From Microthyrium microscopicum (lineage: Eukaryota), in assembly GCA_010405405.1 (NCBI GenBank), contig MU004230.1:1584627-1648626 (forward strand): a stretch of 64,000 bases of DNA, read 5' to 3'. The notes beneath the pieces were generated by a model, which worked only from the letters and a program-made list of their open reading frames with translations, searched no databases and was not told the DNA's origin. Position numbers and translations under genes: made by a program. This document shows positions 30,393 through 63,738 of the stretch, piece by piece (the stretch's first letter is position 1; the number at the start of each line of letters is the position of its first letter).

Positions 30393-30524
30393 CTTCGCCT
30401 GCAAAGATTTTGATTATGAAAAAGAATGTATAGAGTTGGATATAGAGTAGTAAAAGTCCAGATATCCAGTCGTACTAATATATATGTACACCAGCTGCAA
30501 TTGACGCACCAATATCAAGGACGG

Positions 30525-30664
30525 TAAAAAGGCACAATATAAATCGTATAGTAGTAGTAAGATAGTATTATTAGAGTCCTCCCTCTAAGGAAGGATATAT
30601 AAGCTAAGACTACCTGCTAAAGATACCCTAACGCCTTACCCTTTTAGGAAAGCATCTTATATTA
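30525..30664 (-). repeat. LTR (3' LTR of the minus-strand gypsy element)
   Basis: Direct repeat of 47297-47436 with only C/T and G/A differences; short purine run (minus-strand aggggca) just inside it. Confidence 0.9.
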
Positions 30665-34900: not shown

Positions 34901-37900
34901 TCTTTCTAAAGACTAGTCTCTATTCTAACTACACTATTCTTAAAAGTACTACTACTTACTTAAATCCTTTAGTTCTAGTCTTTTTAATATAGTCTTTCTA
35001 GTTTATTCTTCTATTTACCTATATACTTAGTACTCTAATACTCTCTAGTATAAGCTTAGTAAATATACTATCTACTATTACTATAGATTATAAGTTTACT
35101 TCTAGGTAGTAAATATTCTAAGTAAAGTATATTACTTAGTACTTATTAAGAGTAAACTTTACGCTATATCTAGTTACTTAGTTAGTATACTTTTAATAGG
35201 CCTCTTTTAGTCTTATATAGTTTTCTTAGGTAATATTACCCTATATAACTAATATAGTATTATCTATAAACCTAAATCTAAAAATATTATTACTTACGTC
35301 TTAGAAGTATTCTAGTAGTTCTAATATAAAGAAGAGAAAGAGGATAAGTAAAAGGAAGAATCCTTAGGAAATCCCTATATTAGTTATTATTACTAGGCTC
35401 TAGTGCTTAGTAAATATAATTTAGGTTATATAATTAGTAGCAAAGCTTACTACTATATTAATTAGCTATTAGGAGACTCTCTTTATCTCTAAGATATAAA
35501 AGAGTCTCCTTAGATTAATATTATTATACGCTCCTTAAAGATTAAGGCTAAGTACTAATACTATAGCTCTTATATTTCCCTTCTATGCTACCTTAATAGT
35601 ACTCCTTAAGAGCTATACTACTATTAGTATTAACTACTCTACCCTAGTCCTTATCTAGTTCTAGGATAGTAAATTATTATCTTCTATAAGTTAAGTAAGT
35701 CTATTAGTAATAATCTTTTTAACTAGCTTTACTATAGTATTCTTAAGAGTAATTAGCTAATAGGCTAATAGTAGTAAATAGTCTTTCTTACCTAGCTTTT
35801 TTAATACTAGCATATAGAATTACTTTAAGTATTCTAAAATTGTGCTACTTATTAGTATTCTACTAATTATAGGTACTAGTCTTTTACTAAATTCTATTAG
35901 TTTTAGATTATTACTCTCCTTTTTAAGCTACGCCTTAAGCTTAAGAGCCTTTAAAACCTTATTTAGTATATTAATAAGTCTTATCGCTTTATAATTTAGA
36001 AGGCTATTAATTATATAATCTATCTCTTTTGCTATTACCTTATAGTTTATCTTTAATTCTAGGGATAGGATAGCGTCCTTTATATTACTTAGGTTTATTA
36101 CCCTAATTTAAAGAAAGAACTTTATAGATAGTATATCTACTTTACCTTAGTTATTATAAGTATAGTTATTACTAGTTATCTATCTAAGTACTAATAGGTA
36201 TAGGTCTTCTTTTAGTTTACTAGCTTTAGCTTTTATTTATTTGCTTATTCTCTATAAGCCTTAGTTCTTATAGCGCTTATAATCTTTTATAATCTCTTCT
36301 ATAAAGGTTTACTAAGATACTACTTTATTCTAATGTAGAGATTTCCTTAGCTAGGCTATAACTAATTTATATATATACTTATTCTAGTCGTTTTTTATCT
36401 AGAAGTATCTTTTCCTTATATAGCGCTTCTTCTATATTAGTAGAGTAGTTATAAGTAACTACCTATATAAAGCTTACTTTAAAGGTTTTACTTTTAGGTA
36501 GTAAATCTCTAGTACTTTTATTATTACCCTATATAAAGCTTCTATTAGTATATCTTTAATATCCTATAAGCTATTATTTATATATTTAATAAATTATTCT
36601 ATATCTAGTTTTTATATATTGTACTATACTTTTAGTACGTATTTTTCTTATCCTAAGGTAAGCTAAATTAGTACTAAGATATAATCTTCTATTAGTACTT
36701 AGATATTAACTAAGCTATAAAACTCTAGTCTTTCTTAAAGGAATTAGGATATAAATATAAGATTAATTACTATCTTTACTACTCTTACTCTCCTTTCCTT
36801 ATATAACCTATAGGTTAGCTCTTCTTCTAATATACCTAGGTAAAGTCCCTACTAAATTATATTATAAAGTAAGGTATTTACTTAGGATTTAGTAGCTAAT
36901 ACTACGCCTCCTTATTAATAGTAGTAATAATTAAAGTCTCTTACTAATAGGATCTCTTCTTTTACCTTATTAATTACTTTTATTAGTATTAGGTATTTAA
37001 TAATATAGTTATAGTTACTTACTACTAAGCCTTTATTATATATATTAATAATTATTAGTATTATATACCTATGCTAAAGGCATAGTATTAAGACGAATTA
37101 ATTATAATATCTTACTTACTAGTCTCTTATATTAAGCGCCTTACTTATTATAAAGTATACTCTTAATTAATTATTCTAGTTATATGCTAGAACGTAGCTA
37201 AGGAGGTAGTACGTCTTTCTTAGCTTTATAATTCCTTTAAGGTCTTAGACTACTATAATTAGTTACTTAGTATTATCTAGTAAATTAAAGAATAGCCTTA
37301 CTTTCCTCCTATTTAACTTCTTATAATTATATTATATAATATTAATACTATTTATCTAAGTCTATTATTTAAATTCTACTTATTTTATTACTAGAGGTTA
37401 GCCTAAGGTTATTTATAGCCTATTCTACTCTCTTATAGTTATTTTCTTATTAGTTTTCTAGGGCGCTGTCTCTTATAGTTTATAAGCTATTGTTACCTCT
37501 ATTAAAGTTAAATATACTTATAATTAATTTCTAAGTACCTTAGACTAGGTTGTTATATACTTTATCTTTTACTTCTTATAATGCTAATAATTTTCTAGGG
37601 TTCTTAGTCTCTACTTTTCTTTTCTTTATACTATTTACTATAGTGTATCTATTATTATTTATAAGCTAAATTAGTATAATTTAGGTAAGCATTATAGCTC
37701 TTATTTATTCTATATATCTTTCGTTTACTACCTAGAATCCTTTTATACTCTTAAAGTAGGTTTAATATACTTTATATATATTCTTCTACTATGTATAGTA
37801 TTCCTAGCCTTACTCTTTCTCTCCTCTTCTTCCTCTCTTATTATCTTTATAGTTAGAGTACTAGACTAGGCTTATCCTAATATAGTCCTTAGTATTATAA

Positions 37901-39117
37901 TTGCCTATATATTTGCTATAGTTTAGTTTATACTAAGTATAAGCTATTTATATATAGCCTTAGACTTAGTAGTAAAAGTACTATTTAGTAGTATATTTTA
38001 GGTTATATAATCTAGTAAAGAGCTCCTTTACCCTAATAATAAACTTCTTCTAAATAACCTTATTTCTTATTACTATTATTAAGTAGTATAGCATAAGTAA
38101 TCTCTTAATATATACCTTTCTATACTTTTCTAGTTCTTCTTTTACTTATTTATACTTTATATCTTTATAGAGCTACTAGACTACTCCTATTTCTAAACGT
38201 TTAAATCTTATCTTATTTCTATTAACTAGTTCTTTAATTAGTTTGCTATTATCTATATTCTTACTATAGGCTACGTCTAGTTTAAGTAAAGCCTTTAGGA
38301 TCTCTACTAAATAGTTTTATTATAGAACCTAAACCTTATCTAAGCCTACCTAGCGTAGCCTATTTTAGATATAGTCCTTATCTAATTATATATTAACTAT
38401 AATATTAATATTCTTACTAGGTAGTAGCTTAATAGCTATTACCTATAGGATAATTTTCTTAATTTTTTTAAATAGCTTTACTCTATCCTACTTATCTTCC
38501 TCTAATATATTTTTAACTACTTTTATAATATTAATTTAGACTATTAGGCTTATAAAGAGGGCCCTTTAGTTAGGAATTAGTAGGTTAAGTCCTTTTATAA
38601 CCTTTGCTTAGAAGTTAAGGGTTATTTTAATCTTAGTAATCTACTTTATAATTATATTAAGTTTTTAGTTAAGACGTACCTTAAGGCGTATTAGCAAAAG
38701 AGCCCTATTTATAGTTAGAGCTAAGTAGAATACTAGTTATTTAATATAGTCTTATGCTATAACGAAGAATATATAGTATTATATAAAATTAGCTATTAGC
38801 TAATTAAGGAATAGTTATATTAGATCCTCCTCTTTAAATATAAGTCTTCTTAATAGTACTTTAATTCTTTTCTATGCTTTTACGAGTAGTAGTTTTAGGT
38901 TATCTTTTTGTTTCTATATTGCCTTATTTTTAATATAGGTAGCCTCTATAGTAATAATGGCTATCTATTACAAATCTTTATTTATCTTTATAGCGCTAGC
39001 TATTACTTACGTCTAGTTAAAAGTTACACTATTATAATAGTCTTAATAAGACAAATCTAATAATAATAGTTTTATAGAATAATTCTAAGAAATTAATCTT
39101 TTAGTACGATAATACTT
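31990..39117 (-). mobile_element. RIP-inactivated non-LTR retrotransposon (Tad-like LINE) nested in the gypsy integrase
   Basis: Exact 14-bp TSD tatacctaattata at 31976-31989 and 39118-39131. De-RIP minus-strand motifs: ORF1 zinc knuckles CFHCxxxGHxxxAC and CGKCxGNHDTKDC (~37880-37980); APE endonuclease LLVGDFNxHH..WGG (~36910-36955) and VIDLTF; RT KKPGKKDY..YRPI, LDLQGAYDN, GIPQGSPLSPILF, FVDD (~35260); C-terminal CPCG...H...C (~34060-34120). Confidence 0.88.
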
Positions 39118-41670
39118 TATACCTAATTATAATAAGAATAATATTTAATATAGTTTCTAAGTAATTAAGAAAATTCTTTAATATAGAAGTTTTAATTAAT
39201 ATAATAGTAATATCTATAGTAGCCTATATAACTCTATTTATTATATATTAAGTAGAGTATTTCTAGTACTACTCTACGTAGTAGTATAAAGTAACGCTAG
39301 TAATTAAAAGTATTAAGATTCTAGATAAGTTTATTATTATTCTTAAAGAAACACAATTTAGGAGACTCTTCTATAGGTAATATATTAATTAATAATTTCT
39401 AGTACATATTATTCTTATAGCCTTTAATAATTATTATTTTCTAGGCTTCTTTTATATATATAAGGGTAATATTATAAATATAGACGTTACTTAGTTTCTC
39501 TAAGTTTAGCTCTAACTCTAGATCTAGTCCTATAATTAGTAATCTTAAGAATATATTAGGAATAGTATTTTATTTACCTAGTTTATACTAAATATTAACT
39601 CTAAACTACTATATAAATATACTTACCTTTACTAAGTTTAAATTATTTCTTTCTAGTAATATTAATTTAAGAGAAGTTTATCTTAAAATCTAAGTTATAG
39701 TAGCATAGTCTATAAAAACTATTATCTAAAGATTAGAGGCTTAAATCTAAGCCTTAACTTTACTAACTAACTAAACTAGACCTAATACCTTAAGCTAGGT
39801 TAAGTAATATTATAATTTAGCTAAAGTAAGTATACGTAAGAAAAAGGCTAGTAGTAAGATTTTTAACTACTTAATCTCTTTACTATCTATTAAATCTCTT
39901 TTAACATAGTACTAAATACTACTATAGCCTTTCTTACTTAAATTAACGTCTTTATAAAGGCGCTTATTAGCGTTAAAATAATATAGAATATTTAAAGCCT
40001 TACTTCTTAAGTAAGTTTATAAGGTATTAAATATAAGCCTTAGCTCTAGTATCTCTTTAATATAAATGTAATATATAAATACTATACGTCCTAACTTGCT
40101 CTTAAGTATATCTTTAAGAAGCTTAGTCTCCTTAAGCTTAAGGAACGTAGCTATCTATATATAATAGTAAATTATAATTCTTAGCTATTCTATTGCGCTA
40201 TTAAAGTATTCTAGCTATACTAAAGTCTTTAAAAAGGTAAAAGTAGTTAGAGTAAAGATTTACTTCTCTATATAGCCTATACTAGTTCCTATAACTTACT
40301 TTTCTAGGATTATTACTATAGAGAATCTAATTATTACTTTTTCTACTACTAGCATAATATTATTCTTATTATACTTATTAAGAAAAGTTTTAATATATAG
40401 ATAGTACTCCTTAAATAAAATACTCTTAATAATATAGTTATTAATATAGGCTCTTAGCTAGGCTTAGTAAAGGTAAAAGAGTTAGTTATTATAACGTTAT
40501 ATATAAAGTAAAGAGTTATAGTAGCTTATTAATACTATATTTATATACTCTATACTATAGTATATAATTACTATAAGAAGGTAATAATAATCTCTATTAA
40601 CTATAAACTAGTTAAAAAAACTTTTCTTATTAAAATACATAATATAAGTTTTTCCTTTTAATATTTTATAAACGTCTAATATATCTAGGATTAGGTAGTT
40701 ATTATAGACTATAAGTCTATTTAATTCTCTTATATCTTAAACTAATCTACTTTTATAGGTAATAGTTTTATTAGCCTAGTAGAAATTCTTCTAGATAATA
40801 AATATTAGCTAAGTAAATAGTATAGGGTCCTTCTACTAGTCTATTTTTTTATCTTTATAAGCTTAGTCATAGGTTTTATTAATTAGAGCCTTTTCTATAA
40901 GTTTTACTAAGTATAGTTTATTTCTTAACTTTTAACTTATAGCTATATGCTAATTAATAATTAAAGGAATTTTTAACTAGTCTTTTTCTTTCTACTTAAC
41001 TAGCCTAATATTCTCTAAAAATACCTTTAGATATTATTATAGAATTTTATTATAAGCTTTACATTATGTATTATTTCTAAAAGTTATTATACTAAATAAT
41101 AGTTTTCTAGTATTTTCTAAATCTATATTAAAATATAGTCCTACTTTCTCTACTAGAGTTTATAAACTAGCTAAGTACTAAGAATTAATTTACTCTACGT
41201 TATTTTCTTTAGCTTTTTCTAATATAGTTTAGTTTAGATCTTTCTACCTAAATTTTAGCTACTTCTCTCCTAGTAATATAATATGCTTATTATAAACTTC
41301 TAACTATAGTAATATATCCTACATAGTATCTAATATATTTTATTTATCTATACTCTTAAGTTATAATCTCTTATAAATAAAAACTAGTAGTAAGATTTTT
41401 TAGTTATCTAAAGTTTTTAGTAGCGCTAGCAACTTTTCTAAAATAGCTATATAGTCTATTAAAGCTAAACTTTTTAGTAAGGTTTTTAAAGCTTTAGAAA
41501 TTTCTTAGCATATAAAAGTAGCTTAGGTAGAGATTAGAGGGGCCTACTATAAAGCTATAGAAGCTAAGCTTATTTAAGAAATATCTTTATTACTTATTTT
41601 AGATTTACAAATTTTTAGCTAGGGTATAGAGATTAGCTTAGATAAAGCTAGGATTAGCTACTACTACTCT

Positions 41671-41934
41671 ACTAAAGCTAAGCTTAAAAAAGAATTTAAT
41701 TATAGCTTAATTAGAGCTTACTAAAAATTTTACTATAAAGTAGGGTAGCTTTTAAGTAAAGGTAAAGTAAGCTCCCTAGCTATAACTAAAACTAAGCTTA
41801 AAGAAGAATTTAATTATAGCTTAATTAGAGCTTACTAAAAATTCTACTACAAAGTAGGGTAGCTTTTAGGTAGAGGTAAGATAAGCTCCCTAGCTATAAC
41901 TAGAACTAAGCTTAAAGAAGAAATTAATTATAGC
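41671..41934. repeat. 114-bp (38-codon) tandem repeat, ~2.3 copies, inside the gypsy coding region upstream of RT
   Basis: Unit starts actaaa(g/a)ctaagcttaaa at 41671, 41785 and 41899; copies differ by transitions. Confidence 0.85.
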
Positions 41935-44900
41935 TATAATACGTAGCTTAAGCCTAAAGCTCTTAAAGTAGAGATAGCCTAAAAGTCCTTTAAATTTCTA
42001 TATAATTTTTATATAGTAGAATTATATATAGTAAGTATATATATTTTAGATTAAGCTTAGGCTATACTAGTAGAAATCTTTACTATATTTAAAGTAGATT
42101 ATAAAATTAATAATAAAATAGGTAGCTTAAAAAAAACTAGTTAATTTAATATATCTACTATAATGTTTAATACTTATTAAGTTATACCTATTAAAAGTAT
42201 AATCTTATAAGTAGTAATATATTTATTTTAAGGTACTTAAGAATAATTCTTTATAGTAGAAACTTTTACTATAATATTTATACTTATAGCTAAGTTTCTT
42301 TTAGCGTTAAGTTCTATAGAGCTTCTAATAGCTATAGAGCTTACTACTATAAGTATAAAGTTATTTATATATAGCTTCTTAGGACCTTAAACTAGTACGT
42401 TAAATCTCTAGACGTTAGGATTATTATTTAGTCTTTAATAGAAATAGGCGCCCTCTAGTATAGTAAAAGCTATAAAGAAATAAATAGTAAGTAGTTTATA
42501 AGCTTTATAATCTATAAAGTTCTAAATAAACCTAAGCTTAGAGTTTTAAAAAATAGTTATAAGTTACTATATAGTATTATAAATTTTTAAGAAGTAAGTA
42601 TCTAAGTTAATAATACTTAGTACTATGCCTTCTTACCTACTAAGGAAAAGAAACTAGTAAGAAATAAATAAAAAAGATTTATTAAGAAATAAATATTTTC
42701 TAGCTATAATAATTTTAATTATAACTACTATATAAGGAGAGATTATAATATTAGTTATAGCTTTTATAAGTTATTTAACTTCTACCTATCCTATAGTAAA
42801 TATAATAAGAAAAGTCTAAAAGAATTCTAAGTCCTTTAATCCTCTAGATAAATTTAGTCTCTCTTTAGGCTCTCTAGTTAAGTATAGTAATCTCTTTGTC
42901 TTAAAATCTAATAAAGCTCTAATTAGTTCTAATATATCTATTATAATTAAAAGTAGTCTATCTAAATTCTCTATAACCTAGAACTCTATTTTAAAGTAAA
43001 GTAGCACCTTATCTTCTTAATAATTATATTTATAAATATAGATTAGTAGTTTAATATATAACTTTATCTATATTAGCTTATTATATATATAAAAAGTTAA
43101 TAAAGAACCTTATATTATAATAGTAGCTTCTAGCGCTATTTACTTTAAAGTAATTACTCTAATATAGCTAGGCATAGTATTACTATTTACTATAAGCTTA
43201 TAAAGAGTAGCGTTATATTTAAAAGAGATTAGCATAGTAGCATAATAATAGCGCTTAAAGTTTTTGCCTTTTATTAATACTAGTTTTTAAGTTAGCTTAA
43301 TAATTTTAACTCTAGCGTTAATAGCTATATAATTAACTTTTATTATTATTTACTATATATTTACTATAGTAAACTTTACTACTCTAAGCTTATTTTCTTT
43401 ATATTAGTATAACTTACTTAAGTAATAGAATAAAGCATTATATAAGTTAAAAGTTATATAATAGCTTTAGTATTTATAAACTTATAAAGTATCTATATTT
43501 ACTATCTAAGATACTAAGTTTATATAGTAGCCTTCTCCTTTAGATTTATAGACGTCCTCTAAGTCTAAGGCCTTATTATTATTTTTATAGTCTAAGTACT
43601 AATCTTAATCTTAGCTATATTACTCCTAATCTATAAAGTTTTACTCCTTAGATTAATTTCTATCTACTTCTATATAGCCTTAGCTTCTATTCTATACTTC
43701 TAGCTCCTAAGTATTACTTATATAAAAGACTTATAAATATTTATTAAATAGCTTACTATTAAGAGTAGTACGTTTTTAGGAGTTCTTAGTAAACTCTCTT
43801 AGTAGGTTTATACTATTAAGATATTTCTATAGTTACTAATTTAAGTTCTCCTAATTATTTATTATATTTTTACTTTTTTAATATAATATTTATACTTACT
43901 AGTAGTTTTAGTTAGAGTTTTAATTTACTTTATTATAATAACGCGTATATTAACTATTACTTAACTAATTATTCTAGTTATAGTATAAGGAAAAATTTAC
44001 GCTTCTAGAATTTAAATAATTAGAACTTATATAGAGTTTTATAAATAACTTATAATATAGTATAGAGTTTAAAAATCTATACTTTAACTCTTTAAAATAG
44101 CGTATAGCTAACTCTTACTATATATCTTTTCTACTTATTAGGATCTATATCTAATTACTAATATTAGTACTATAAACTAGCTTTAGTATTTTATATTATA
44201 ATTTAATATTAAGTTTATTCTAAGCCTAGCATAACTAATTATAATCTTTAAAATTAGCATTGCTTACTTTTTAATAAACCTATCTAAACTATCTAATAAG
44301 TCTTTATTTCTCTACTATATTTTATAAAGAGTAAATTAAAGCTATATTTAAGGCAAGTTCTTTTATAGCCTAATTTTAGTTAAGTATAAAGTTTTATAAT
44401 AACTAGTTCTTCTAATTATTAATTACTAAGCCTTCTTAAAGCTTTAATTATTATATTAAACTTAATAATATATAAAGTTTAAGTATAGCGCTACGTAAGT
44501 ACTTAAAAACTCTTATATATATAATATAGGAAAGACTTTATAAAGTAGCATCCTAAAATTAATCTATAAATATATAAATATCTTAAAATATAACTTTACC
44601 CTTAATTATAAAGAAGTCTAAATTACTAAAGCTCTAAAGATAGTTAGGCTAAAAGTTTTTAACCTATCTAGCTTTAAACTTCTTATAATAGCCTCTCTCC
44701 TTATTATCTTTAGGATTACCTTAAGATTACGTATTTTAATTATAGTTCCTAGTTTTAAGCCTATCTAATAAAACTTTAATTAAGTATAGAATTACTAAAA
44801 AGAAATTAAGGTTATTATTTACTAGCTATAGAAACGTATTATTACTATATTTTAGAAATATATTTCTTAGTATACTTTCTATATAGGCTATCTCTACCTA

Positions 44901-47296
44901 CGTCTCTATATAAGAAACTTATACTCTTTTAGCCTATAGTATAAAAGTTAGCTAAGGAAGAAATTGCCTAATAACTCTTAGCTAAGACTATAATTAATTT
45001 ATTCTAGAAGCTTAACCTCTAAAAAAATAAAAAGAAGTATCTATATAAAATAGAGTTAGTAAACTTATAACTTTCTTTATAAATTCTACTTCTAACCTTA
45101 TATTCTTTTACTCTAATACTTCTATATATTATTATATTTACTTAATTAAAGTTTATAGCTTCTCTCTATTATTAGTATTAAAGAATAATATTATATTTAA
45201 TATAAGCTAAGAAAAACTTTACTTATCTTCTAGCTTAGTTTCTAACTATACTAGTTAGCTTAGAAAAAACTCTAGTATTAGGGTACGTCTAGTATATAAT
45301 AAATCTAGAGGTAGTCTACCTACTAATACTAAAGATAAGATAGTCTCTAACTCTATAGTAGTTAATATAAGATCTATTAAATTAATTTACTAATATAGAG
45401 TAAAAGCTATAGATACTAATTACTCTATTATATATTATAGTATTATATTTCTAATAATAGGCTAAGGTATTAAGACTTAATTCTTTACTTAGTCCTTTAC
45501 GTTTACTAATAAGATTATAGAAATAGCTTATATTACTAATCTAGCTCTTATTTCCTTTAGATTAAGAATTAGTCTTTAAAGTAAATAGACTAAAGCCTAT
45601 ATAAGTAGTAGTAATTAAACTTATAGTCCTAAAAGATACTAAACTTTTTTTACCTAATTATTAATTTCTTTTCTCTCTACTTTAAAGTTCTACTTTAAAA
45701 CTATAAAGCTAGTAGCGTTTATATTAATAAGCTAAAGATTATTAAAATTCTTAAGTAGCTTTTTATATTTCTTATAGCTATTAACTAAAGCCTAACTATA
45801 GATCTAGTATCTTTATACTTTTTATTCCTTACTTAGTAGTAGAAGCATAAAAACTAAAAACTCTTTCTTTCCTTAAGACTTTCTAAGTTAACTTTATAAT
45901 TCTTTTTTATATAGATTTTATAGCTCTTAATAAGAGAGCTAAAAGTTTTTAAAGTAATTTTTTTCTAGATTATTTACTACTAGCTCTTTTAGGCTAATAA
46001 GATCTAGCTTATCTCTTAGTAAGCTAATATTCCTACTATAAATAATAAACTACGCCCCTATTAATTTAGGAATATTATTTATATTTAGGTTATTAATAAT
46101 AATAAGGGGAAATTCTTTGCTAGCTAAAAATTTTTAGAGCTAGACTTAGAAGTTTAAAAACTCTAAATAGTACTCTAGCTACTTATAGTAAGTAACTTTA
46201 CCTATATTTATAGGAGCTAAAAGAGATCCTTTACTAGTAGTAAACTTTAGTTACTAGTTAAGTAAGCCTACTATAAACCTATAAGCTTATAGTTTTTTAT
46301 AGCTAAAAGTTTTATTATACTTTTAAAGTATTAAAAAGGTACCTCTACTAGTAATTCTTTATTAGAAGAAAGTTAGAAGTAATAATTATAGCTAAACTAG
46401 TAGAAAGTTTTAATAAAGAAATACTTTAGTAGTTATTTAGCATTAATAAAAAATCTATTAGTATAGTAGATAATTTTTAAGTATAGTTAAGAATTATAGC
46501 TAGGTAGCTACTATGCTAACGCTATAGAGAGAATCTTATTATGTTTACTAATATACTAATAACTATTAAACTTTTAGAAAAGTTAGAGTCTAAAAGCTAA
46601 AAAGATTTTATTAAAGTCTAATTAGAAAATAGTATAAGAAAGAGAGATACTATAATAGTAATATAAATAAAGGAGTTATATAAAAAGATAGATAAAAAGT
46701 TATTATAATAAAAGATAATAAAAAGTAGTTATTAAAAATAATAATAAGAGAGTAATAGTCTAAGAAGATAATAAAGGTTAAGGTAAAAGTAACTTATTAA
46801 GAATTAGGCTACCTATTTTAAAAGTTATTACTAGAATAACTATACTATAGTTAAAAGTTTAGTAAGGCAATTAGTCTTACGTAGTAAAAACTTTATAGAC
46901 TTAGTAAGTATATATACTAATTTATAAAGAGTATAGTAGTTTTAGAGGAAGAGCTAGTAGTAATATATTAGTAACGCTTTAAATACGCTATAAGTATCTC
47001 TAATACCTATAGGGTAGGTAGTTATATATAGTATTATTTTTATAGTAGATAAAAAGAGTATAAGTAAAGAAAATAAGGTTATTAAGAAGAATATAAGGTA
47101 TTTAGTTAATCTAGGCTATTATACTCTCTAGAAAACTAAATTTTATAATAATGCTCTTACGAAGAGAGGAAAGAGTTATATTTAGTAATTAATTATTAAT
47201 CCTTTAACGCGCGTATCTTTAAAGTTAGATTTAATCTTTTAATAGTTAAGATAATAACTAGCGTCTTAATATTTAGAGTAGCTTATTACTACTATC

Positions 47297-47436
47297 TAAA
47301 AAGGTATAATATAAATCATATAGTAGTAGTAAGATAGTATTATTAGAGTCCTCCCTCTAAGGGAGAATATATAAGCTAAGACTACCTACCAAAGATACCC
47401 CAACGCCTTACCCTTTTGGGAAGGCATCCCGTATCA
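47297..47436 (-). repeat. LTR (5' LTR of the minus-strand gypsy element)
   Basis: taaaaagg...cccgtatca; ends in CA and begins TA (RIP form of TG); followed by TSD GACGG. Confidence 0.9.
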
Positions 47437-48431
47437 GACGGACGGACTAGCAACCTTATTTTCACTGCCAGCAGCATTATTCCAATGTATAGAGGTATTA
47501 AGGGTTCGGCTGGCAATCAATCCTGATCACTGTACCGGGTAGGACTTGTCGAAATGTATGAAGGTAGGGCTTCCACTTGATATTCCGCTGTTCTATTTCG
47601 GCCAGACTTCTAAATGCAGAGGTGGAGAGTAAATGATTGTCCGGAGTGATTCCCACCAATCTGTGGAGCGGGATCATATATATTGGTATCTTCGCAATGA
47701 ACTCGAAGCTTTAGGTTCAATGATCCACACCTTATTTGCTTATAATTGCTTACCATGCTCAGGAATAGGATTCAGTAGCATAGTAGCAATCAGAGACCAA
47801 AATCTCCATAAGATTGAGTCTCCACCTCCTATTTGCCATAAAGTTGAATGCTTACCTTGTATATCACCCTGCAATCCTCCATTGTTCTCCGTGTTGACTT
47901 CAGCATCCCACTTGGCGCAGACAATATCGACATTTTGGCTTCATTCTCTTTCATGTGATATCTGTCAAAAGCAGTTGACTTTGAATCAACAAAAACATGT
48001 TCATTGTGGGAAGAAATAGAGCCATTAGTTGTTCGAGCTCAAAGGACTCATGAGTCTTGTCGGTGGATCATCCTATTCCTGCCTGGCATCCTGGATACAG
48101 TAAAGTATTGGCCCATTACGAACAATGTGAAAAATCGACGATTTACCAACTTCATCTTGCTGAGTCCTGCGACATAAAATTTCAAATCATTATTTACACA
48201 ATTGCTGAAATGTCCTTCTTTTCAAAAAGAGTACAATCTGAATGTCCTTGGAGCCTTATAGCCTGAAGTTACTCTAGCGTCATTGACTCGGTAATGACGA
48301 CGAGGCGTAGCGTACTCTTCAACCTTTGAGATGTTTTCCAGCCTCCAGGCCATCAATTGAAATTCAACCAGTATTTCTGTCGATTCCTTTTCAGCATTCA
48401 TAACTTGAAAGTTGGTAGTCTTGTATGGAAA

Positions 48432-50895: not shown

Positions 50896-52101
50896 GGTCG
50901 TGAAGTCGTATGCTACCTCGAGCTAGACGGAACGGGTCTCGAGGATGGTATACGGAGTTGGCTGTCGGTCTTGAGAAGCCCAGATCTACAGATATAGGCG
51001 CGTCGTAGACTCATGCCTCGGCGGACACCTTCTGCTGGATTGTGACAAGCAGCGGAGCCACATATCAGGGCAACAAAGAGAAAAGAATAGTAATTGAGCA
51101 TGACAAACAAAAGGAAATGTGTTGAGATCGTCTCCTGAACTTAGTCTTTCCATAGGTTCACCGTCCAAGCGCCTTCTAACTTCGGAACGGCCCGCTTCTA
51201 AACAAGCCACCAGATCAGTCTATCTAACTTAAGTCAACTCCCACAGAACAAGTTTGATTTATTTTCTTAAATTGTAGTCTAGACTAGGAAATAATCCTCG
51301 CCCGGGGTTCGAGTTGAAGTTGGCTAGGCGGCTACATTGTCGGCTAGCTCACCAGGAGAACAAAGATCAAAGGCGGGAAGACGACATGCGGAATGCTCAT
51401 CAGCCCTGGGACCGACTACAAATCGGGAGCTCTGTACTGGAAGGCTTAGACGCTACTGGACTATCGATGGCATGATTTGCATCTATCATCTGCATTACTG
51501 TCCGTTAATGGAATTGCGTTATGTTGATTCCACCAACAGATCAAAGCTGTAGCCGCCACCTGTTTTGCCCAATATTTTGTCTGTACTCAACCAACTAGGT
51601 AGTTACAACTTACTGCTCAAATGCTCATTGACTATTGGTCTTGATCAAGTGATAAGATTCTTGCGCTTGGGAGACTCGCGTTTAAATAGTCTGGTCGTCG
51701 AAATAGCCGGTCCCAGATAGTGACGATGTCCATTGATAGCTCTGCAGGAAACGCTTGCAATTAAAACCCAGCATTCCAAGATTGGACAAAGCTGGTTTAG
51801 CTTGAACCAACCCTGAGCTGAGCGGCATATGATTCGATCTTCGCGATGCTCCTTGTTCTTCGAGTGTTCTTTGTTTCAACCTCAAAATACCTTCATTGTC
51901 TATCGTGAGCGCACTGACTCTATCATCTCTCACTAAACACTTACAACCCCAACACCTCGAGTACTTTATCTGCCTTGCTAAGCCTTCAATCTCTATTAAC
52001 TAAAACAGTCGAACCCCCTTTTCCTTCCACAAGGCTGTCTTATCCTCCACAACCGCGACCGTTGCGACTCAATATCGTGCGCAAAGGCAGATTCGGAATA
52101 C

Positions 52102-53565
52102 ATGGCATCACACAATCGAGTTTTTCATCAATACGTGCCCCAGGAAGGACGCGTTGTGGCTATGAGCCATGCCGATCAACGAGACAAGTCCAGGTTGAGA
52201 CAGCCTAGTTCAGACAGCATGTTCTACGATGCGGTTCCCAATCAACAAGACTCAAGGCCGATAGCCGTGAGGCCTACCAAAACAATATCTTTCGATAACT
52301 GGGATGAGGATGAATACCCAGAAACTCTGTTGAGTGTCAGTCCAGAATCTCCTGGAATGCTCAACGTTCGATTGCCAACGGGTACTAGGCGATCAATGCC
52401 TCACGATCCATTCAATATCGCAAGAGGTAGGAGGCTGAGTCGAAGTCAAAGTGCGCGAAGCGAACCACCATTACCTAGAACGAGAGAGCTGCCAACAATG
52501 CCGAAAAGTCCACAGCATCGCAGTGTCTCGAGGGGCCGTAAACAACAGTCCAATCGGCAATCCGATCCAGGTACAGCAGAGCAGCAGCGTACTAGGAGTG
52601 CTTCAAGGAATCCTCGCCTCAAGAAACTTATGACAGAGAGAGACCTGGATGATATCAATACAGGGCGTAGGTCTGGTGAAATGTCACGCCTCTCAATCAA
52701 GAATACCCCTGTTGAGCTCTACGGTCAACGCACAGGAAGGCCCAAAATCGATTCGGGCACACTACCCCCCCCTTTGCTCCGCCACTCGATAGAAGCAAAA
52801 CACAGGAAGAAAATCAGTGCTGAATCATACCCCTCGCCAGTACATTTGTCCAATTGGACCACATCGCACTATGAAGAAGACATTTGGTCTCGGTCAAGAT
52901 ATCTGGCAGGTGCAATTCAGGTAGAGCCATCTTTTGGGCTTTATGCTATTCCAGTAATGACAGCAATGGATGTTCTGTGCCAATCAGAAACCATCAATGA
53001 TGACCAGGTGATAGACGAGATTGTGGATTTCTTCAAATCCTATGGTTTCGAGCCTGTAGCGAGCGAACTGGACCAATACTGGATGCAGGAACGTGCAGTA
53101 GAGCCCAAGAGAATATCAAAGGCCACTACTACCTCATCTTCACTACCAAAGTCTGTGAAATCGCCAACGGGATTCTCAGATACGTCTTCGGTCACGTCCC
53201 ACTTACACCCGGGTTCAGCGTCCGAAAAGCGCTGGTCTGGCGGCCAACAATCTGCCATTTCGGCTGAAGGCGCAGCGTCGCACAAATCATCATTTGATTC
53301 GCAGCGAAGCACCTCTGTCGATCCAGTCCTTTTGTTGAAGCAAAGTCCTGCACCTTCAGGCTCTGCAGCTTTACCCACTACTTCACCCAAAAGTCCCGGT
53401 GGACAATCCCAGGAAGAAGATGGGTCGCCAGGACCAGGGCCGATGCTTAATCAAAACCTAAAAGTAGGCAAACAGTCGCCAGCGCCGAAGTCGGCGTTGC
53501 CTAGCCTCCAGTCGAGGAGCAAATTCTCTATAAGGAGAATTCTCGCAAATCGAAATTCCAAGTGA
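52102..53565 (+). CDS. Hypothetical Ser/Pro/Arg-rich protein
   Basis: 487-codon ORF, mostly disordered, with one ordered-looking patch (YLAGAIQV...IDEIVDFFKSYGF...LDQYW). Confidence 0.7.
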   Translation: MASHNRVFHQYVPQEGRVVAMSHADQRDKSRLRQPSSDSMFYDAVPNQQDSRPIAVRPTKTISFDNWDEDEYPETLLSVSPESPGMLNVRLPTGTRRSMPHDPFNIARGRRLSRSQSARSEPPLPRTRELPTMPKSPQHRSVSRGRKQQSNRQSDPGTAEQQRTRSASRNPRLKKLMTERDLDDINTGRRSGEMSRLSIKNTPVELYGQRTGRPKIDSGTLPPPLLRHSIEAKHRKKISAESYPSPVHLSNWTTSHYEEDIWSRSRYLAGAIQVEPSFGLYAIPVMTAMDVLCQSETINDDQVIDEIVDFFKSYGFEPVASELDQYWMQERAVEPKRISKATTTSSSLPKSVKSPTGFSDTSSVTSHLHPGSASEKRWSGGQQSAISAEGAASHKSSFDSQRSTSVDPVLLLKQSPAPSGSAALPTTSPKSPGGQSQEEDGSPGPGPMLNQNLKVGKQSPAPKSALPSLQSRSKFSIRRILANRNSK

Positions 53566-54591: not shown

Positions 54592-56371
54592 ATGGATTCA
54601 TTATATTCATCTTCTGGTCTACCCATCAATCCCGACCAAGTCAGTTGAACACATCCTATGTTGAAGTATGTGCTTGCTAATCTTAAACAGTTTCTTCATG
54701 GTGTCGGCGGCAGCGCCTTGGATCGCCAGCAAAACCTGTCGACTGATTCAAATCGTTCATTTACACTTGACTGTGAAGAATACTCTCCAACACAGCCAAT
54801 GCAAATGACTGAAAGGTCATATTCACATCCCCAACATTCAAATTGGCTTTACCAAACACCCAGCAATTCGAACACCACCAGCAGCACTCATTCCCCTCTG
54901 AAGACTATCGAGTCTACCACACCTGAATTGAGGATAGGAGTATTCGACCCTGCGGAGTATGTCGCCAGCCTACCTATAGACAACGACCAGACTCTAGGTC
55001 AACTCACGCTTTCAAATCCCTTCGGCACTGACGCCCCATACGCTCCTCACGCAAACACTTTTGGACACTGGGATCAAGAAGCATTCTCAGCAGACATGAG
55101 CCGATCCGCTAGCCTCGCCAGCCACGCAGGAAGCAGTGTCAGTTCATTCCCAACACCCTCCGACATGGTCCGCATGCCTTCTGGCTCTACTCAATTCTCC
55201 TACTTTGGCGATGCCGAGCAACCCCAATTCGGCAGTCTCCCAGACGGCATCACCACTTCTTACCCTTACCGGCCATCCCGCACTTCCTTTTCCTCTCAGT
55301 CCTCTCTTCTATCCCCTCTCTCTGCCACAGGCATGAAGCGCTCCAGCTCCAACTACAGCACCGCCAGCTTCGTCTCCGATTCACCAACCAGTCCCGCCCG
55401 CCTAGCACCACCGCGCAGACAGTCCACCAAGTCCACTCGCTCTATCGCTCCCAAAGCCACGTCCACCATCGAGCTGACCGAAGACCACAACATGGTGCGC
55501 ATAAAGAGCTCCGACGGGACATCTCGCAAAGTCGGCGTTCTCCAACGCCAAAAAGCACCACCCATGGCCGCTCGCCAAGTGCCAAATAAACTCCTTTGCA
55601 CAGAATGCAACGAGCATCCAGGTGGTTTTCGCGGAGAGCACGAATTGACGCGCCACACAAACTTGCGCCATGCGACGAAACGCAAGATGTGGAAGTGCGT
55701 AGACAATCGGCCCCGTGATAGCAGATTTGCGATGCCACAGATCGCGTTGATCAAGTGCCGAAATTGCCAAGAAAAGAAGCTTTATGGGGCGTACTACAAT
55801 GCAGCTGCACAGTAAGTGTGACAGAAAATACCTATCACATAACCTATACTAACGATCATCTAGTCTTCGCCGCGTGCACTTCAATCCCAAGCCCAAAGGC
55901 CGCGGACGCAAAAACGGCAGCGAGAAACGCGGTGGTAAAGCCGGTGGCAACAAACCGCCCATGGACGAGCTCAAAACTTACTGGATGTGTGAAGTCGAAG
56001 TGAATGATAAAGCTGCCGGAGCCAGCAAATCAGCCGACGAAGAAGACTCCGAATCCACCTCGGAAGAGGACGAAGAATATCAGGACGAAGAGCCGCATGA
56101 GCCACAGCGACAAGCGATGAGCAACGCCGCAGGACTCCAACATGGTATCCAGCAATTTGAGAGTCTAATGTCGCAAAACTCAGGAGCCTCAACAGCCTCA
56201 GCAAACGGGGGCTGGTCAAACAGTTTCGGTGCTGACAACAGTACATGGCAAGAACATGGCGAGCCTATGGGCTTAGCGGTACCGCGATTTAATGTGCCGA
56301 TGGAATCTTACAATGGTGGGGATGGAGCGTACATGCCGCAGCAGCCAGAAATGCAAACCCACTGGAGGTAG
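54592..56371 (+). CDS. Fungal C2H2-like zinc-finger protein (KLAP1/DUF7896-like putative transcription factor); 3 exons
   Basis: CTECNEHPGGFRGEHELTRH...KMWKC, KCRNC..KKLYGAYYNAAAH|LRRVHFNPK and EKRGGKAGG..PPMDELK.YWM; introns ~54640-54690 and 55812-55863. Confidence 0.8.
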
Positions 56372-56845
56372 TAAGGCGAGCATGACACGCTTTATGCTGG
56401 GTTCGTAAGATTTCGGATTTCTTTCACGGTTGTTTCGTCTTTGTTTACTCATATTTGCATTGCAGCATGGCGCTGGTGGCAACGTTCACGGATTTTATGT
56501 AGTATCACGACTGCATGAACATTATACAATGGAAATTTATTAGATATAACGATAGTCTTGCGACAACAACGCGCATACATATGAGAGAATTATGAACACT
56601 TTTTATTCCTAACTAACTCCTCAATGATTTGTGCAATTGACTATGAACGTTTCGTCCTCGGTCCGGTAAGCGTTTAGTTACACGACTTGCACATGCAATG
56701 ATAGCAGTTGTAGGTTAGCAAGGTTTACTTCATTACTCTGACATTTGCAAGGTCAACTATCGTTACCCAAAGCCTAATCATCTGCCCATTACGATTGCCC
56801 AACTACCATTTCAAGCCCAATACCCAACAAGAACCCAAAGTTTTC

Positions 56846-59800
56846 TCACCACTCCGCCCCAGGACCAGCATCCTCTTCAGTCTCTGTCTCCACAAACGCG
56901 GGCCGGAAATCTACTCCCTCCGTTTTCTCCATAATAGCAATCTTATATCGCCGGTCTGTGATCCATGTAGCATCATCGCTTGGCTGACGATATGTGTTGG
57001 CAGGTATGGCGCCAGTCATCATATATTCGTCTTCGCCCTCCATATACTTGCCTCCGAAGGGAACATGGCCGGCTCCTTCTACAAATCGATCTTCGACTGG
57101 CTGGCGGCGAGAAGATGAATGAGGCGCGATGTCATGAGGCTGAGAACGATGTGATGAGTGGTGTGAGGAGGCAGTCTGTCGACTATCCCTAGAATGATCT
57201 CGCGAACGAGGCAAAGACTTATCTCGAGATCTTTCCTCCCATCCTACATGAAGGCTGGAAGGGTGGTGAGAATGCTGCTCATGCTTATCCAACTCCCAAG
57301 TACCATTGTCACGAGGGTATGCACCAGGCACGGCATCATCATCAACAACAATGATCGATTCTGAGCCATAAGAGTAGGCCTGAGTTCGAGCCGGTGGATT
57401 AAAGTTGAGAGCGGAGACAGGAGGAGTGGGACGTGATCGGCTAGTCTCATGATGATAATCATTATAACTTAAGGTTCGAGCAGCCGGAAGGCGATATACT
57501 TGTTCACGATGACGGCTTGTGGTTGTAGAGTCACTACTGTCGGTCGAGAGTGTTGAAGCAGTTGTAACGGATGATTGGTGATTATGTGAGTTGCGACTTT
57601 TTGCTGACTCTGGGTATATGGTTTTAGTATCGTCCAATTGGTCTTTCGTGTCCCACTCTGCATCAGGAATCTGGTCATTCTTCTTAGGTTGACCAGTTTC
57701 CTAGGCCCAATCATCTCTAACTGAGTGACCAGATCTAGCAGAGGCCGGTTTGGTGATTTTTGTGGATTTGACACCCCATTCTGATCCGGGCGAGGCTTGA
57801 GGTGCCGATGGCCATGCCCAGTCCGTCCTGTCTGTGGCTTCAGGCGGTGGGGATGGTTTTCTAGGTCGAGAGACATGTCGGACACCCGGAATGGGCATCG
57901 AGTCCTCTGATGCTACCGAGCGAATCGAGGCTTTTGAAGTCCAAGTGTCTTTCGGAGCTGGAGCTCGGCTCGTTGCCACTGACTTCTGCGAGGTCGAGCC
58001 GCTATGCTTTTCTTGCAGCGAAGAGTCCTTTTGTCGTTTCGCTGTGTGAGATTGTCGTTCATCCCAGGATGCGTTATCCGCTTGCTTCTTCTCAATATAA
58101 ACATGATGAGCACCTGAGGTGATTCGTTTGCGAACTGGCTCACCCCAGCTATTGTCACTACCTCCATGGATTGATTCCTCAAGGCGAGGAGAGTCAGGAT
58201 TGGATGCTTTACCTGGCTGACCCCAACTATCAACACTAACGTTTTTTTGATCTTCTTCAACTGTGGGAAGACTTTTACGTAGAAGACGCTGAGATTTGAC
58301 CCATAAGTGACTTCGGCGTGAACCAACGTCAGATTCGTTATCTCGCTCGCGTGTGATGATGATGCGGCGCGATCGGTGTCTCCGTTCTTCTTTTGAAGTC
58401 GTATCAGCAGCATGCTCAGAGGTTTCCTCATGGTCTGTGTCATCGTGGTCGTCTTTGTGGCTTTTGACAGGTTTCTGATGTTCATCGCTCTTCTCACTTT
58501 TCTGCTGTTGGGTGTCTTTCTTTTGCTTTGTAACTTCCTTCTTTGCTCCCTTCGTCTTTTGCTCTTGATCGCCTTTCTTGTCAGCCTTATGCTGCTTAGT
58601 CTTGGGCTTCTTAAGTTCCTCGAACTCAGACCATGACTCTTCTTCCAGCGAATACGCTTGGTCCTTGGGTGTTGACTCCACTTTCTTGCCTTGCTTTCCC
58701 GACTCTGATTTTTCCTTTATCTGCTTAGGTTCCTCGACTTCAGATCCAGAGTCCTTTTCTGCATTTTCTTGATCCTTGGGTTTAGACTCCACTTTCTTGC
58801 TTTGCTTTCCAGGCTTCACTTTCTTCTTGTGCTGCTTAGATATTTCGACTTCGGATTTGGTGTCTTCTTCTGCTGAATCTTTTTGGCCCTTAGATTTAAA
58901 GTCCACCTTTTTGTCGTTTTCCTTTGGCTTTGATTTCTTTTTGGTTTGTTTCTTAGGAGGCGGCGCATGCGAGCCATCGCTAGAGGCCTCATCATCGGTG
59001 TAGATGATGCGAGTCTCTCTCAGTTTCTTTTCCACCTTAATACGCTCGCAGCGAGAACAATCCACATCAACAACCTTTCGACCTGGAATTAGAGGGTGAT
59101 CTTTATGATAGCCAGAGGAACGAGGAGCTTTGCATGTTGCGCACTTATGCCAAGGTCCTGTCGGAGCCTCTTCTTCAGGCTCATCATCTTTAAGCTCAGT
59201 GATTTGAGCTTGAGGAATCTTAGGAGGTGGAAGTCCGGTTCGGCTGAAGTCTTGTTGATAACCATTTGGTGGCGGGTAGATATTTGGTGGTGCGTATCCG
59301 CCTGGTGGTGGATAACCATATGTATTTTGTTGATAAGGATTCTGATCATATCGTTGATAGCCAGCAGGAGGAGGAGGGGGAAGACCTGGCAGATTCTGCT
59401 GACCAAAACCTATCTTATGTTAGCTTGGTCATTGAAAGTGGTACCAATCAATGCTACGGCATTTGTTCCTCACATCCCGCAATCGAAAACATGAACCAAT
59501 TCGAACGGAGGAGACTTACCAGAATAGTATGGTGGAAGCTGACCCGTGCTGTTGTAAAGCGCGGCATCTTCCATAGACAGTACGGCTGGAACTGGGGCGC
59601 TCGTCATCTTTGCCTTCGCAGTCTCTTTCTTCCCTTGACTTTTCGCTTTTTCTACAATTACGGGCTGCGGGGCTGTCACGATGGTCGATTGCGCACCAGC
59701 TAGTGGTGTCGGACCCGTGATAGGACCTCCTGGTTGAATGCTGTATGCTGGAGCAGCAACACTATATTCGCTCTGTAGAGGTACCGGGCTCAATTTTCGA

Positions 59801-60114
59801 GCGCTCTTGCGAACCCAAGCGTTGCGCTGGAGTCCTTCGTGACGGACACCTTGTCGAAGCGCGAGGTTGTCAAGACTCAGGCCTGGGATAACAGCTTCCG
59901 CGAGACTGTCGAACAGCGATGGTTGGATCTTTCGGCGAAGGGTGATGTTGACGATTTGCTCGGGGCCGTCCTTGGTTGGTTTGCTCTGAACGATAAAGTG
60001 CTTGGGAACTGTTGTGTGAGGCTGGTTTGGCGCGGTGTAGGGTACAACTTGCTGGTTCGTGTTGACTGGTACAGGATCTTCTGGAGGCCAGACACGGACT
60101 TTCTTGAACTTCAT
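56846..60114 (-). CDS. Large low-complexity hypothetical protein with a CxxC-RS-YH-HP-CxRC motif, interrupted by one in-frame TAG at 57701-57703
   Basis: Exon 1 60114-59520, intron ~59519-59410 (GTAAGT..GCTAAC..TAG), exon 2 includes CATCKAPRSSGYHKDHP...CSRC and runs to TAG 57701; the same frame then stays open for ~285 more codons to 56846. Confidence 0.65.
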
Positions 60115-60786: not shown

Positions 60787-63262
60787 CTACTCCGCACGTA
60801 GCACACGAGCACCCCGACGCTTGGGCGTCTTCTTCTTCTTGTGGCCCTTTTCAAACGCAACGGCTGCGCCATGGTCACGGCCGAGGTTATCGAGAGGCTT
60901 GACTTTATAAATGCGAATAATCCAGTTTTCACTGGTAAATGCCTCTTCAATGGTGGACAATTGAGGGCTCTCTGATGGCAGACGGACTCCACGTACTCTA
61001 TCTGTGGGTTGACCGCCTGGGAATAGCTCGTTGTACTTGTAGTATGACATCTTGTACCTATATTGCGTTAGATCTACGAATTAAGACTTTAGTGCCTAAC
61101 TTACATTAAGCTGTTTTTCATGGTTGGTGTTGCCTCATCGTCGACACGATACTCGCCTCGGGCGGTAAAGAAGTCTCGCTCTTTGACTTCCTTTGGCCAA
61201 ATACCTTCGGCGATACGGATCATCCAAAGGAACTTGTTGATATCATCACCAGAGTAGCCTAGAAGACCACCGTAGACAACAAGAACATAGTCAACCTCAT
61301 GTTGGCGCATGATTGGGTAGCTGACTTCTTCGCGAGAAGCCATTGCCTTTCCGACGGTCGCAATATGAGTGTTGTTCCAAGTATTGTTGTCAACGAGAGT
61401 TGGTCGGTCAGCCATACCACCAATCTGGTAACCATAATCCCACCATGACATAACTTTAGCGTTTTGTGCAGTGTTCTGTCGGAGCCAGTAGTATGCCTCA
61501 CGGTAGTCATCAATAATATGTTGAGAGCCATCTGGCCCACGGCTGGCAAGAACCACGGATGGGGAAGAGTAGGCGTTAGATGTGACCCAGGTGCAGTGAG
61601 CAACGAAGATGAGTAGATATAGCGTGCTGGAGCCAACAATGGTTAACTTGGAGAAGAATGAGTAAATTCCAATGAAAGGAGTGCGAGTAGATCGAAGGCC
61701 TTCTGGTAGGAAAGACGTAGGGTCGTGTGAAGCCGACTTTGTGGGTGCGTCGTTGTTTTCGATCAGCTTGGGATCTGGAGTTGGGGTGTCCGCGCTTAGG
61801 TAGACATCCAGAATAGTCGACAGAGCCATAGCCGCTGCTACACAGACAATTGGTGTAAGAGTAAGCATCAGACGAACCATGACGCCTGCGAAGTAGCTTG
61901 CAAGGACAGCATAGATGACAATGAAAACATGCTCATCCTCAAGAGTCTTGAAGCATAGGTAGACACCAGCTGGGAATAGCCACATGAGCATGTTCAAGTC
62001 AAAGAAGAAAGCTGGCCAAGCAGTAGGTTGATGTTCTGAGACTGATGCAATGATTGGAATATGAATCTTTGCATATCCAGTGTCCCAAAGTGAGTAGAAA
62101 CGACCGGTCCAGGGGGCAATGACGCCAGATACGGTCAAAAGGACCAGTCCACCAAAGGCAACAACGAATATGATGAAGACGAGAGATTTAAGGAGGGTCT
62201 GGAACTGGCGGCTGGGAAGCTGGTTTCGGAAGAACTCTACACCTCCGACGAGCTGTAGCAGTCCGAAGACACCTATAACAGTCAGCCTCAAGTTACATGA
62301 TGTAAGATTCTCAACATACCAAGAGCAGCCATGTGTTCGCTACTGCGAATAGGCAAGAACCCAACAAATGGAATTTGCATACTGGCTAGCGTTCCGAGCG
62401 CAAACCAAGTCGTATAGCTGACATACAACCGGGGGCTATATCTGCCCATACAGATCAAGACGAATGCATGAAGGGGAAGCAAGTTGGTGATGAAGACGTA
62501 TCCACCCCAGGCTGACACCATGTATCCGTAGAACAATGCTGTTAGTGCTCCCCACATAGCTGATCCCTCCTTCAATGACTTGATCCAGAGGTAGAATGTA
62601 AAGACCAGGAGGAAAATAGCAATGGCCTCATTGTCATAAGATCCAGCGACCGAACGAGAAATGTAGCCTGGGGCAATACCCATGAAGCAAGCGGCGAGGA
62701 GACCAGCAGAAGGCGATGGGGTCATTTCAGCTGTGAAGAGATATGTCGCGAACGCAGTGAGACCAGAGAAGGCTGGCGCAAGGAGTACGCAAATGTTTCG
62801 AATGTCAACGGGGAAGGTGAGGAATCGTAGAATGTGGTAAATGACACCGCTCGTCACCATGAGACCTGGGTAGAGGGTACCGCCTGTAACACGACCTAGA
62901 GGATGCCATGTTCCTATAGTATCACCGTTAGAGCTATCACAAGTGTGCGCGACGTGGAATACTAACGGTCATCAAACCAGTCCCAAAAGGAGTAGAAGCC
63001 ATTCTCAACGAGATATTTTGTCGCTCTGAAATTGAACCACGGATCAACTAGATGGGATTAGCGCCTGTTCAAGGTATGTGATCGTTTCGCCAGCTAATTG
63101 TCACATACATTCGTGTATTATACTCTCAAACCGAATTACTGAGAATAGTCGACTTGATATAGCGGCCGCCGCAATGAAGATGAGAATGATCACTCGCAGG
63201 AGTGAACGTGTGCTTCGGCCGCTTTCTCCTTTGAGAAATACTTCCTGGGCCTGAGAGGCCAT
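60787..63262 (-). CDS. STT3: Oligosaccharyltransferase catalytic subunit STT3 (5 exons)
   Basis: [71 protein letters not shown] and [10 protein letters not shown]. Confidence 0.97.
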
Positions 63263-63738
63263 GGCCGATTGATGAAAATCGTAAAGGAGGGACGGGGTGG
63301 GTGGAATAGAATTGGTGACAGTCTTGGTGTTTCTCAACAAAGTTTCCCAAAGAACACGACGACAGTTATTCAGGAGCTTGACACTAGCGTAGCTTCCGCC
63401 AAGACTTTGGAGCTGAGTGGTTGGCCAATCGGAGAAAATGCGGGAAGGGTTTCAGCCTTTTCTCAGCCTTTTCTCAGCCTTGCTCAATGGCCGTCAGTCG
63501 CGGAACAAACAAATAGTATTCACGGAGCAAGACATGGAGACGACACTTGAGCCGAATAAATTATATTTTCAAATCGTGTCACTTCAAGTCGTTGATCAAA
63601 AGTCCGAGAAACGGCCACTTTTAGCTAAATGCTCACCTTGAACGCCACGAAAATGTAGAAAAGACGCTTAAGTGCATGCTCTTCATGCAATACAATGCTC
63701 CAAATGCTATTGATCGAATCAAACCCGCTTCAAGTTGC

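Follow-up and report, generated by a model that had tools for sequence, protein, structure and literature searches.

A single in-frame TAG interrupts an otherwise intact gene of the leaf fungus Microthyrium microscopicum, and conditional A-to-I editing, by which the stop would be read as Trp, is its best reading, held with a confidence slightly on the favourable side of even. The gene lies in the window, the stretch of 64,000 nt of DNA that was analysed. The reading starts from direct observation of the stop, an intact coding-like tail behind it, retention in RNA, an editing-type sequence context and a TAG at a conserved Trp of AMA1 in the same genome. Restoration of the reading frame by A-to-I editing had been proposed in an earlier, sequence-only reading of this DNA. 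Context, stem-loop potential, the AMA1 TAG and an Ame1-like paralogue speak for that proposal, whereas the only RNA run is unedited and the searches returned no orthologue, so neither an ancestral Trp at the site nor selection on the tail can be demonstrated.

The interrupted gene

The gene is encoded on the minus strand in two exons, and the locus is single-copy in the M. microscopicum genome. Exon 1 (59520–60114) opens with the ATG at 60114, in agreement with the start of the annotated protein, and holds 198 codons and one base. Intron 1 (59410–59519; 110 nt, GTAAGT...CTAAC...TAG) is spliced in an RNA contig. Up to the stop, exon 2 (57704–59409, to codon 767) encodes a P/Q/Y-rich part, a K/E-rich part and a low-complexity part with spaced Trp residues. 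The translation also contains a CxxC...H..H...CxxC motif (C288–C319; 59048–59143), a possible zinc site. With intron 1 (59519–59410) removed, the joined frame has 1052 codons and one internal stop, the TAG at minus-strand 57703–57701, which is codon 768. The strand reads GATGATTGGGCC TAG GAAACTGGT, and the A of the stop, the candidate edited base, is plus-strand T57702.

Around the TAG the same frame is open for 572 codons on one side (57704–59419) and 284 codons on the other (56849–57700). The tail (56846–57700) closes with the terminal TGA at 56848–56846, and its first in-frame Met comes near the end (GGKYM). The description from sequence only, of a single UAG in an otherwise intact gene of about 1050 codons with some 285 open codons behind it, was thus accurate. 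The same holds for a DWAW that it had placed about 40 codons before the TAG: this motif (W729/W731) stands 37 codons ahead of DWA*, and Trp recurs in D/S/E/T-W contexts on both sides of the stop.

Scored for coding character with a codon-position model that had been trained on 88 long ORFs from the Microthyrium genome, the tail reaches 0.09; for 88 coding tails the median is 0.148 and the 5th percentile 0.058. The other five frames over the tail score between −0.12 and −0.39, and the 3′ flank scores −0.31. At the base composition of the tail, the probability of 284 open codons arising by chance is about 1e-6.

No Pfam family is found in the protein. Searches for relatives (region 480–857; Cys/His motif; phmmer with the last 470 residues against 1.84 billion representatives) matched only its own annotated protein, and Atlas matches all fell below 0.9. 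The Cys/His motif belongs to no family found and has no paralogue elsewhere in the genome. The check for orthologues with TGG or a conserved TAG, proposed with the sequence-only reading, therefore returned none for this gene.

An orphan, low-complexity protein for which no relatives were found, with a tail near the low end of coding scores, also suits a different history. The stop could be a recent nonsense change (e.g. TGG>TAG) in a dispensable orphan gene, in which case only the 767-aa protein would be made and the tail would simply be undecayed. Such a truncation is unlikely on balance but carries real weight. A change of TGG to TAG is also a RIP-type TpG>TpA change, and 30–48 kb of the window, some 10 kb from the gene, is a strongly RIP-like block. 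The earlier statement that the region shows no RIP-like composition fails for that block and stands for the gene itself, whose indices (TpA/ApT 0.58, (CA+TG)/(AC+GT) 1.32, composite about −0.7) are not RIP-like. This absence of skew counts against truncation, with the proviso that a lone leaked RIP hit would leave no trace in gene-wide indices.

RNA across the stop and the annotated intron

The RNA comes from one run, in assembled contigs from which rare forms are lost; the tissue is not on record, and contig depth reflects expression poorly. The run behaves as RNA, with eight introns skipped within 52–64 kb of the window. One contig (2906 nt, depth 18.8) matches 56784–59407 with 0 differences and 0 gaps over 2624 nt, and crosses intron 1. 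In this contig intron 1 is spliced, a 51-nt stretch around the stop is kept, and the unedited TAG is joined to the tail and to a 3′ stretch beyond it (56784–56845). A separate transcript for the downstream part is contradicted by this contig, which spans both stop and tail. An assembly or sequencing error, with TGG or CAG as the true genomic codon, is contradicted likewise. The RNA contig gives the same letter without a difference over its matched length, and an error is scarcely credible. No A>G at the TAG (T>C at plus-strand 57702) occurs in the contigs of this single run, and unedited RNA is also what a plain truncation would yield.

The annotated M. microscopicum protein is identical to the translation of the gene except for a 17-residue gap over the stop, where the public gene model removes a 51-nt GT..AG stretch (57671–57721) as an intron. 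The sequence-only reading had seen no convincing donor/branch pair that would remove the stop. A GT..AG pair (57721–57671) does flank it and is used by the public model, but its branch is off-consensus and the stretch is unspliced in the RNA contig, which contradicts a constitutive intron. The stretch could instead be a conditionally spliced intron, removed at some stage along with the stop to give the annotated 1035-aa protein. In favour of this, the public model uses the stretch, its length is divisible by three and usual for the neighbourhood (47–61 nt in seven of the eight nearby spliced introns), and one of those introns has a GTTAG donor. Contigs drop rare forms, and the meiosis-specific splicing of yeast AMA1 described in PMC10776026 offers a precedent. 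Conditional splicing is nevertheless improbable, since the contig retains the stretch, which has no CTRAY branch and an A at donor +6, whereas CTRAY and a T at +6 are present in each of the eight introns verified by RNA. The 51 nt also score as coding (0.24 and 0.20), and the acceptor lies in a stem in both predicted folds. The public intron is probably a gene-finder artefact, as for PUK1 of Fusarium, where a false intron was annotated over the stops (PMC7306014).

Sequence context and predicted folding

Editing sites in Fusarium prefer C/U at −2, U at −1, A/G at +1, +3 and +4, and G at +2, and 8.7 % of sites conform to all six preferences (PMC9600606). The target site, C-U-A-G-G-A-A, agrees at 6/6 positions. 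The U at −1 had been cited in the sequence-only reading as favouring editing; every UAG has U at −1, and taken alone this position carries no weight. At the four positions that UAG leaves free, 44/1022 in-frame TGG codons and 2/58 terminal TAG codons of the Microthyrium genome match the preferences throughout. A random stop would fit these four positions in about 4 % of cases and would have a stem-loop such as the one described below in about 0.5–2.5 % (30–60 nt flanks), and both figures tell against truncation.

The 101-nt segment centred on the stop has the lowest folding energy among 77 segments along the CDS, and no other segment has a z-score as low as the two that overlap the stop (−2.9 and −3.8). 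A long hairpin centred on the A is predicted at 57668–57735, extendable to 57748–57652, with the UAG in a 10-nt apical loop (57706–57697). In the 71-nt hairpin the UAG occupies the 10-nt loop in 63 % of sampled structures. In segments of at least 77 nt, a two-hairpin fold that is better by 2.2–3 kcal/mol pairs the A (96–98 % of samples). The minimum-energy folds leave the A in a loop for segments of 41 and 71 nt and pair it for those of 51, 61, 81 and 101 nt; a hairpin-loop position in two of six folds is ordinary, as 216/500 controls do as well.

If the A is required to sit in the apical loop, the best stem-loop has an energy of −34.4 kcal/mol, a value judged by a statistic devised after the hairpin had been seen. 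With 50-nt flanks this value is reached by 0/600 and 2/400 TGG-to-TAG controls; it is equalled by 4–10/400 controls with flanks of 30, 35, 40 or 60 nt and by 70/400 with flanks of 20 nt. Among terminal stops it is reached by 1/150 (a TAA).

A 7-bp stem starts 4 nt past the stop, and the folding segment there is the one with the lowest z-score in the CDS. Both features would suit low-rate ribosomal read-through of the UAG, with the downstream hairpin helping and the RNA unchanged. Structure-stimulated read-through is known from retroviral UAG-G and from alphavirus and Drosophila stem-loops. The target is like these systems in having a stable predicted stem just 3′ of its stop, and unlike them in its short spacer and in showing neither a leaky context nor evidence of a pseudoknot. 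UAG-G differs from the leaky UAG-CAR, and the start of the stem would fall within the ribosome footprint. Read-through is accordingly rated a decidedly improbable account.

AMA1 and other genes with candidate stops

An AMA1-like gene of the same genome (C7:1976886–1980962, +) is interrupted by an in-frame TAG (FSPGAI*NVGG) that separates open stretches of 342 and 141 codons and has no branch signal in its vicinity. Among 80 related metagenome loci, 55 contain the motif around this site (score of at least 17, against less than 12 for the other 25, a clear gap). At the Trp position 53 of the 55 have TGG and two have TAG, these two representing one distinct segment. The nearest relatives of the Microthyrium gene have TGG in a 46-row tree (100/97), from which five rows with stops in the match, the two TAG loci among them, and 30 loci were left out. 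Neither truncation nor read-through explains why an otherwise intact AMA1 should have TAG at a conserved Trp. The A of the AMA1 TAG is in a hairpin loop in 5/6 folding windows, a result of at least five being seen in 99/500 controls and 3/30 TGG orthologues, and the context is poor at −2, +2 and +4.

AMA1 is a meiosis gene known to be rescued by editing, and FgAMA1 of Fusarium is PSC33, for which six independent TAG origins are described in PMC10776026. The Microthyrium TAG may or may not correspond to the FgAMA1 PSC site, and may already be shown in figure 4 or the supplement of that paper. It is the best single test of editing in the Microthyrium genome. This AMA1 Trp is TAG in a further fungus as well (two loci), where the A falls in a hairpin loop in 6/6 windows. 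Separately, the second AMA1 intron of Microthyrium has apparent AT...AC ends, read by eye; four relatives share its position and one lacks the intron, which is possibly regulated.

An ADA1-like (SAGA-Tad1) gene at C4:999309–1000637 (+), which came to light by chance because a deaminase locus adjoins it, has 198 coding-like in-frame codons behind its terminal TAG. The A of this TAG is in a hairpin loop in 6/6 windows. AMA1 and ADA1 each fit the preferred editing context in part only.

A survey of stops with coding-like tails gave no excess of TAG in 664 kb. Over 924 kb, coding-like tails of at least 100 codons follow 2/58 TAG and 0/92 TAA/TGA stops, a difference that is not significant (p=0.15); one of the two TAG cases was dropped as a shadow frame. 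The intron filter of this survey removed 88/238 stops, the target TAG among them. Behind the 150 non-intronic stops of coding-like frames the open tail has a median of 13 codons, the longest being 198.

Genes with Fusarium PSC counterparts (PMC10776026 table S1; PMC13251820) were also screened. The kinases gave 138 matches, 36 of them with stops; in the 30 that were read, including all 19 with TAG, every stop was intronic by eye, and no PUK1 orthologue was identified among the kinase matches. No TAG was present in 149 WD40 matches, and no stops in four RasGAP matches. SPO11, SPO22, CDC20, CDH1 and four methyltransferase genes have no non-intronic in-frame stop over the parts covered. The lack of a significant TAG excess and the absence of such stops from the SPO11, SPO22, methyltransferase and kinase loci weigh against editing. 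The DBF2 terminus is obscured by an intron.

Candidate editing machinery

In Fusarium, residues MV500-501 let Ame1 bind Tad3, and the context of these residues in FgAme1, as given by primers, is NPWSMG-MV-RAEKA (PMC11087585). The same paper lists Microthyrium with two Ame1 orthologues; many of its listed Dothideomycetes have two copies, so that duplication alone says little. Three DUF726 genes are present in the Microthyrium genome, one at C7:56177–57214 (−) and two in tandem at C1:947325–952798. The exact MV residues are absent from all three. The C7 copy, NPFSVG-LV-RADKA, comes closest with residues that are similar but not identical, and the C1 copies have RT and LA at this site. Among the best 120 of 1959 matches, a ranking that favours look-alikes, the first MV position is K/R in 106 and M/L in 12 of the 118 readable, and G-LV occurs in the C7 copy alone. 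L or M at the Ame1 site is also found in the Mil1-type paralogue and 11 other homologues.

Five matches to OTT_1508-like deaminases (PF14441) are located on C4, C7, C14 and C15, at least one of them with HAE...CxxC. None of the five is on the contig of the target gene (C1), hence none in the window, and a pattern search over about 9 kb around the matches turned up no convincing zinc-finger ORF. The deaminase copy at C4:2247703 adjoins an AT-rich block.

Proposed mechanism and relation to known systems

Under conditional editing, the target would be a gene of the premature-stop-correction (PSC) type. The usual mRNA has intron 1 spliced and an unedited UAG at codon 768; it would yield a truncated, largely disordered protein of 767 aa, or be degraded. 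The A would be deaminated to inosine under a particular condition, most likely while the fruiting body develops, and UIG would be read as Trp to give a protein of 1052 aa. The likeliest editor would be Tad2-Tad3 with the C7 DUF726 (Ame1-like) paralogue, and the second choice an OTT_1508-like deaminase. Stage specificity, and with it a switch between long and short isoforms, is inferred.

The target would work most like PSC editing in Fusarium graminearum, in which pseudogenes such as PUK1 (PSC03) and FgAMA1 (PSC33) are corrected (PMC10776026) by a Tad2-Tad3-Ame1 editor (PMC11087585). Like PUK1, it has its stop hidden by a probably invented intron (PMC7306014), here a single in-frame UAG in an intact frame. 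It also shares the preferred −2 to +4 context and encodes a disordered hypothetical protein. Among the Fusarium PSC genes, 50/71 encode disordered proteins and 43 are hypothetical (PMC10776026), and the Microthyrium genome likewise has a TAG at a Trp of AMA1. The target departs from Fusarium PSC genes in host class, in the absence of observed editing, in being without a known orthologue and in an Ame1-like paralogue with LV rather than the exact MV. In addition, once the folded segment is longer, only the second-best structure leaves its A in a hairpin loop.

A second likeness is to OLD-ZAO of Neurospora crassa, for which PMC12754623 describes UAG-to-UIG conversion, U at −1 and a hairpin preference, with an enzyme of the OTT_1508-like deaminase class that has five matches in the Microthyrium genome. 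The target differs from OLD-ZAO in being neither a C2H2 factor nor accompanied by a deaminase match in the window. The third is to sexual editing in Pyronema confluens (Pezizomycetes), for which an independent origin tied to an extra Ame1 copy has been proposed (PMC11087585). In P. confluens editing was shown by RNA, whereas for Microthyrium it is a proposal.

The host belongs to the Dothideomycetes (Microthyriales), outside the Sordariomycetes. The sequence-only reading had anticipated that the stop would be more notable in a host outside the lineages known to edit, and this is the case. No report of A-to-I mRNA editing in Dothideomycetes is contained in the literature searched, a body with most subscription papers outside its scope. 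PMC11156358 treats it as unsettled which classes of Pezizomycotina edit mRNA, and PMC10776026 records stops at PSC sites in single species of other classes, where editing is 'yet to be determined'.

A bolder reading, tentative and somewhat short of an even chance, is a third origin, in which Microthyrium would have its own developmental A-to-I system beside those of Sordariomycetes and Pezizomycetes. A duplicated DUF726 protein would have converged on the Tad3-binding surface of Ame1, with LV for MV, and the system would gate the orphan gene, AMA1 and hidden tails such as that of ADA1. If so, fungal mRNA editing would extend to Dothideomycetes, probably by convergence, and Dothideomycete gene models would hide stops in invented introns. 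The Microthyrium genome offers named single-base tests (T57702 of the window, the AMA1 TAG and the ADA1 TAG) together with a candidate cofactor.

Neighbourhood of the gene

No tRNA genes were found in the window. Directly upstream of the target gene and on the same strand is an STT3 oligosaccharyltransferase gene (60787–63451, −) with four RNA-confirmed introns. On the other side, convergent with the target gene, is a DUF7896 gene (54649–56371, +) with two RNA-confirmed introns and high contig depth. A 521-codon open frame with no Pfam family (52000–53565, +) lies inside an unspliced RNA contig of 5.5 kb. Positions 30001–48000 form an AT-rich block with a GC content of 0.21–0.29 and a strong RIP signature (composite index 1.0–1.9).
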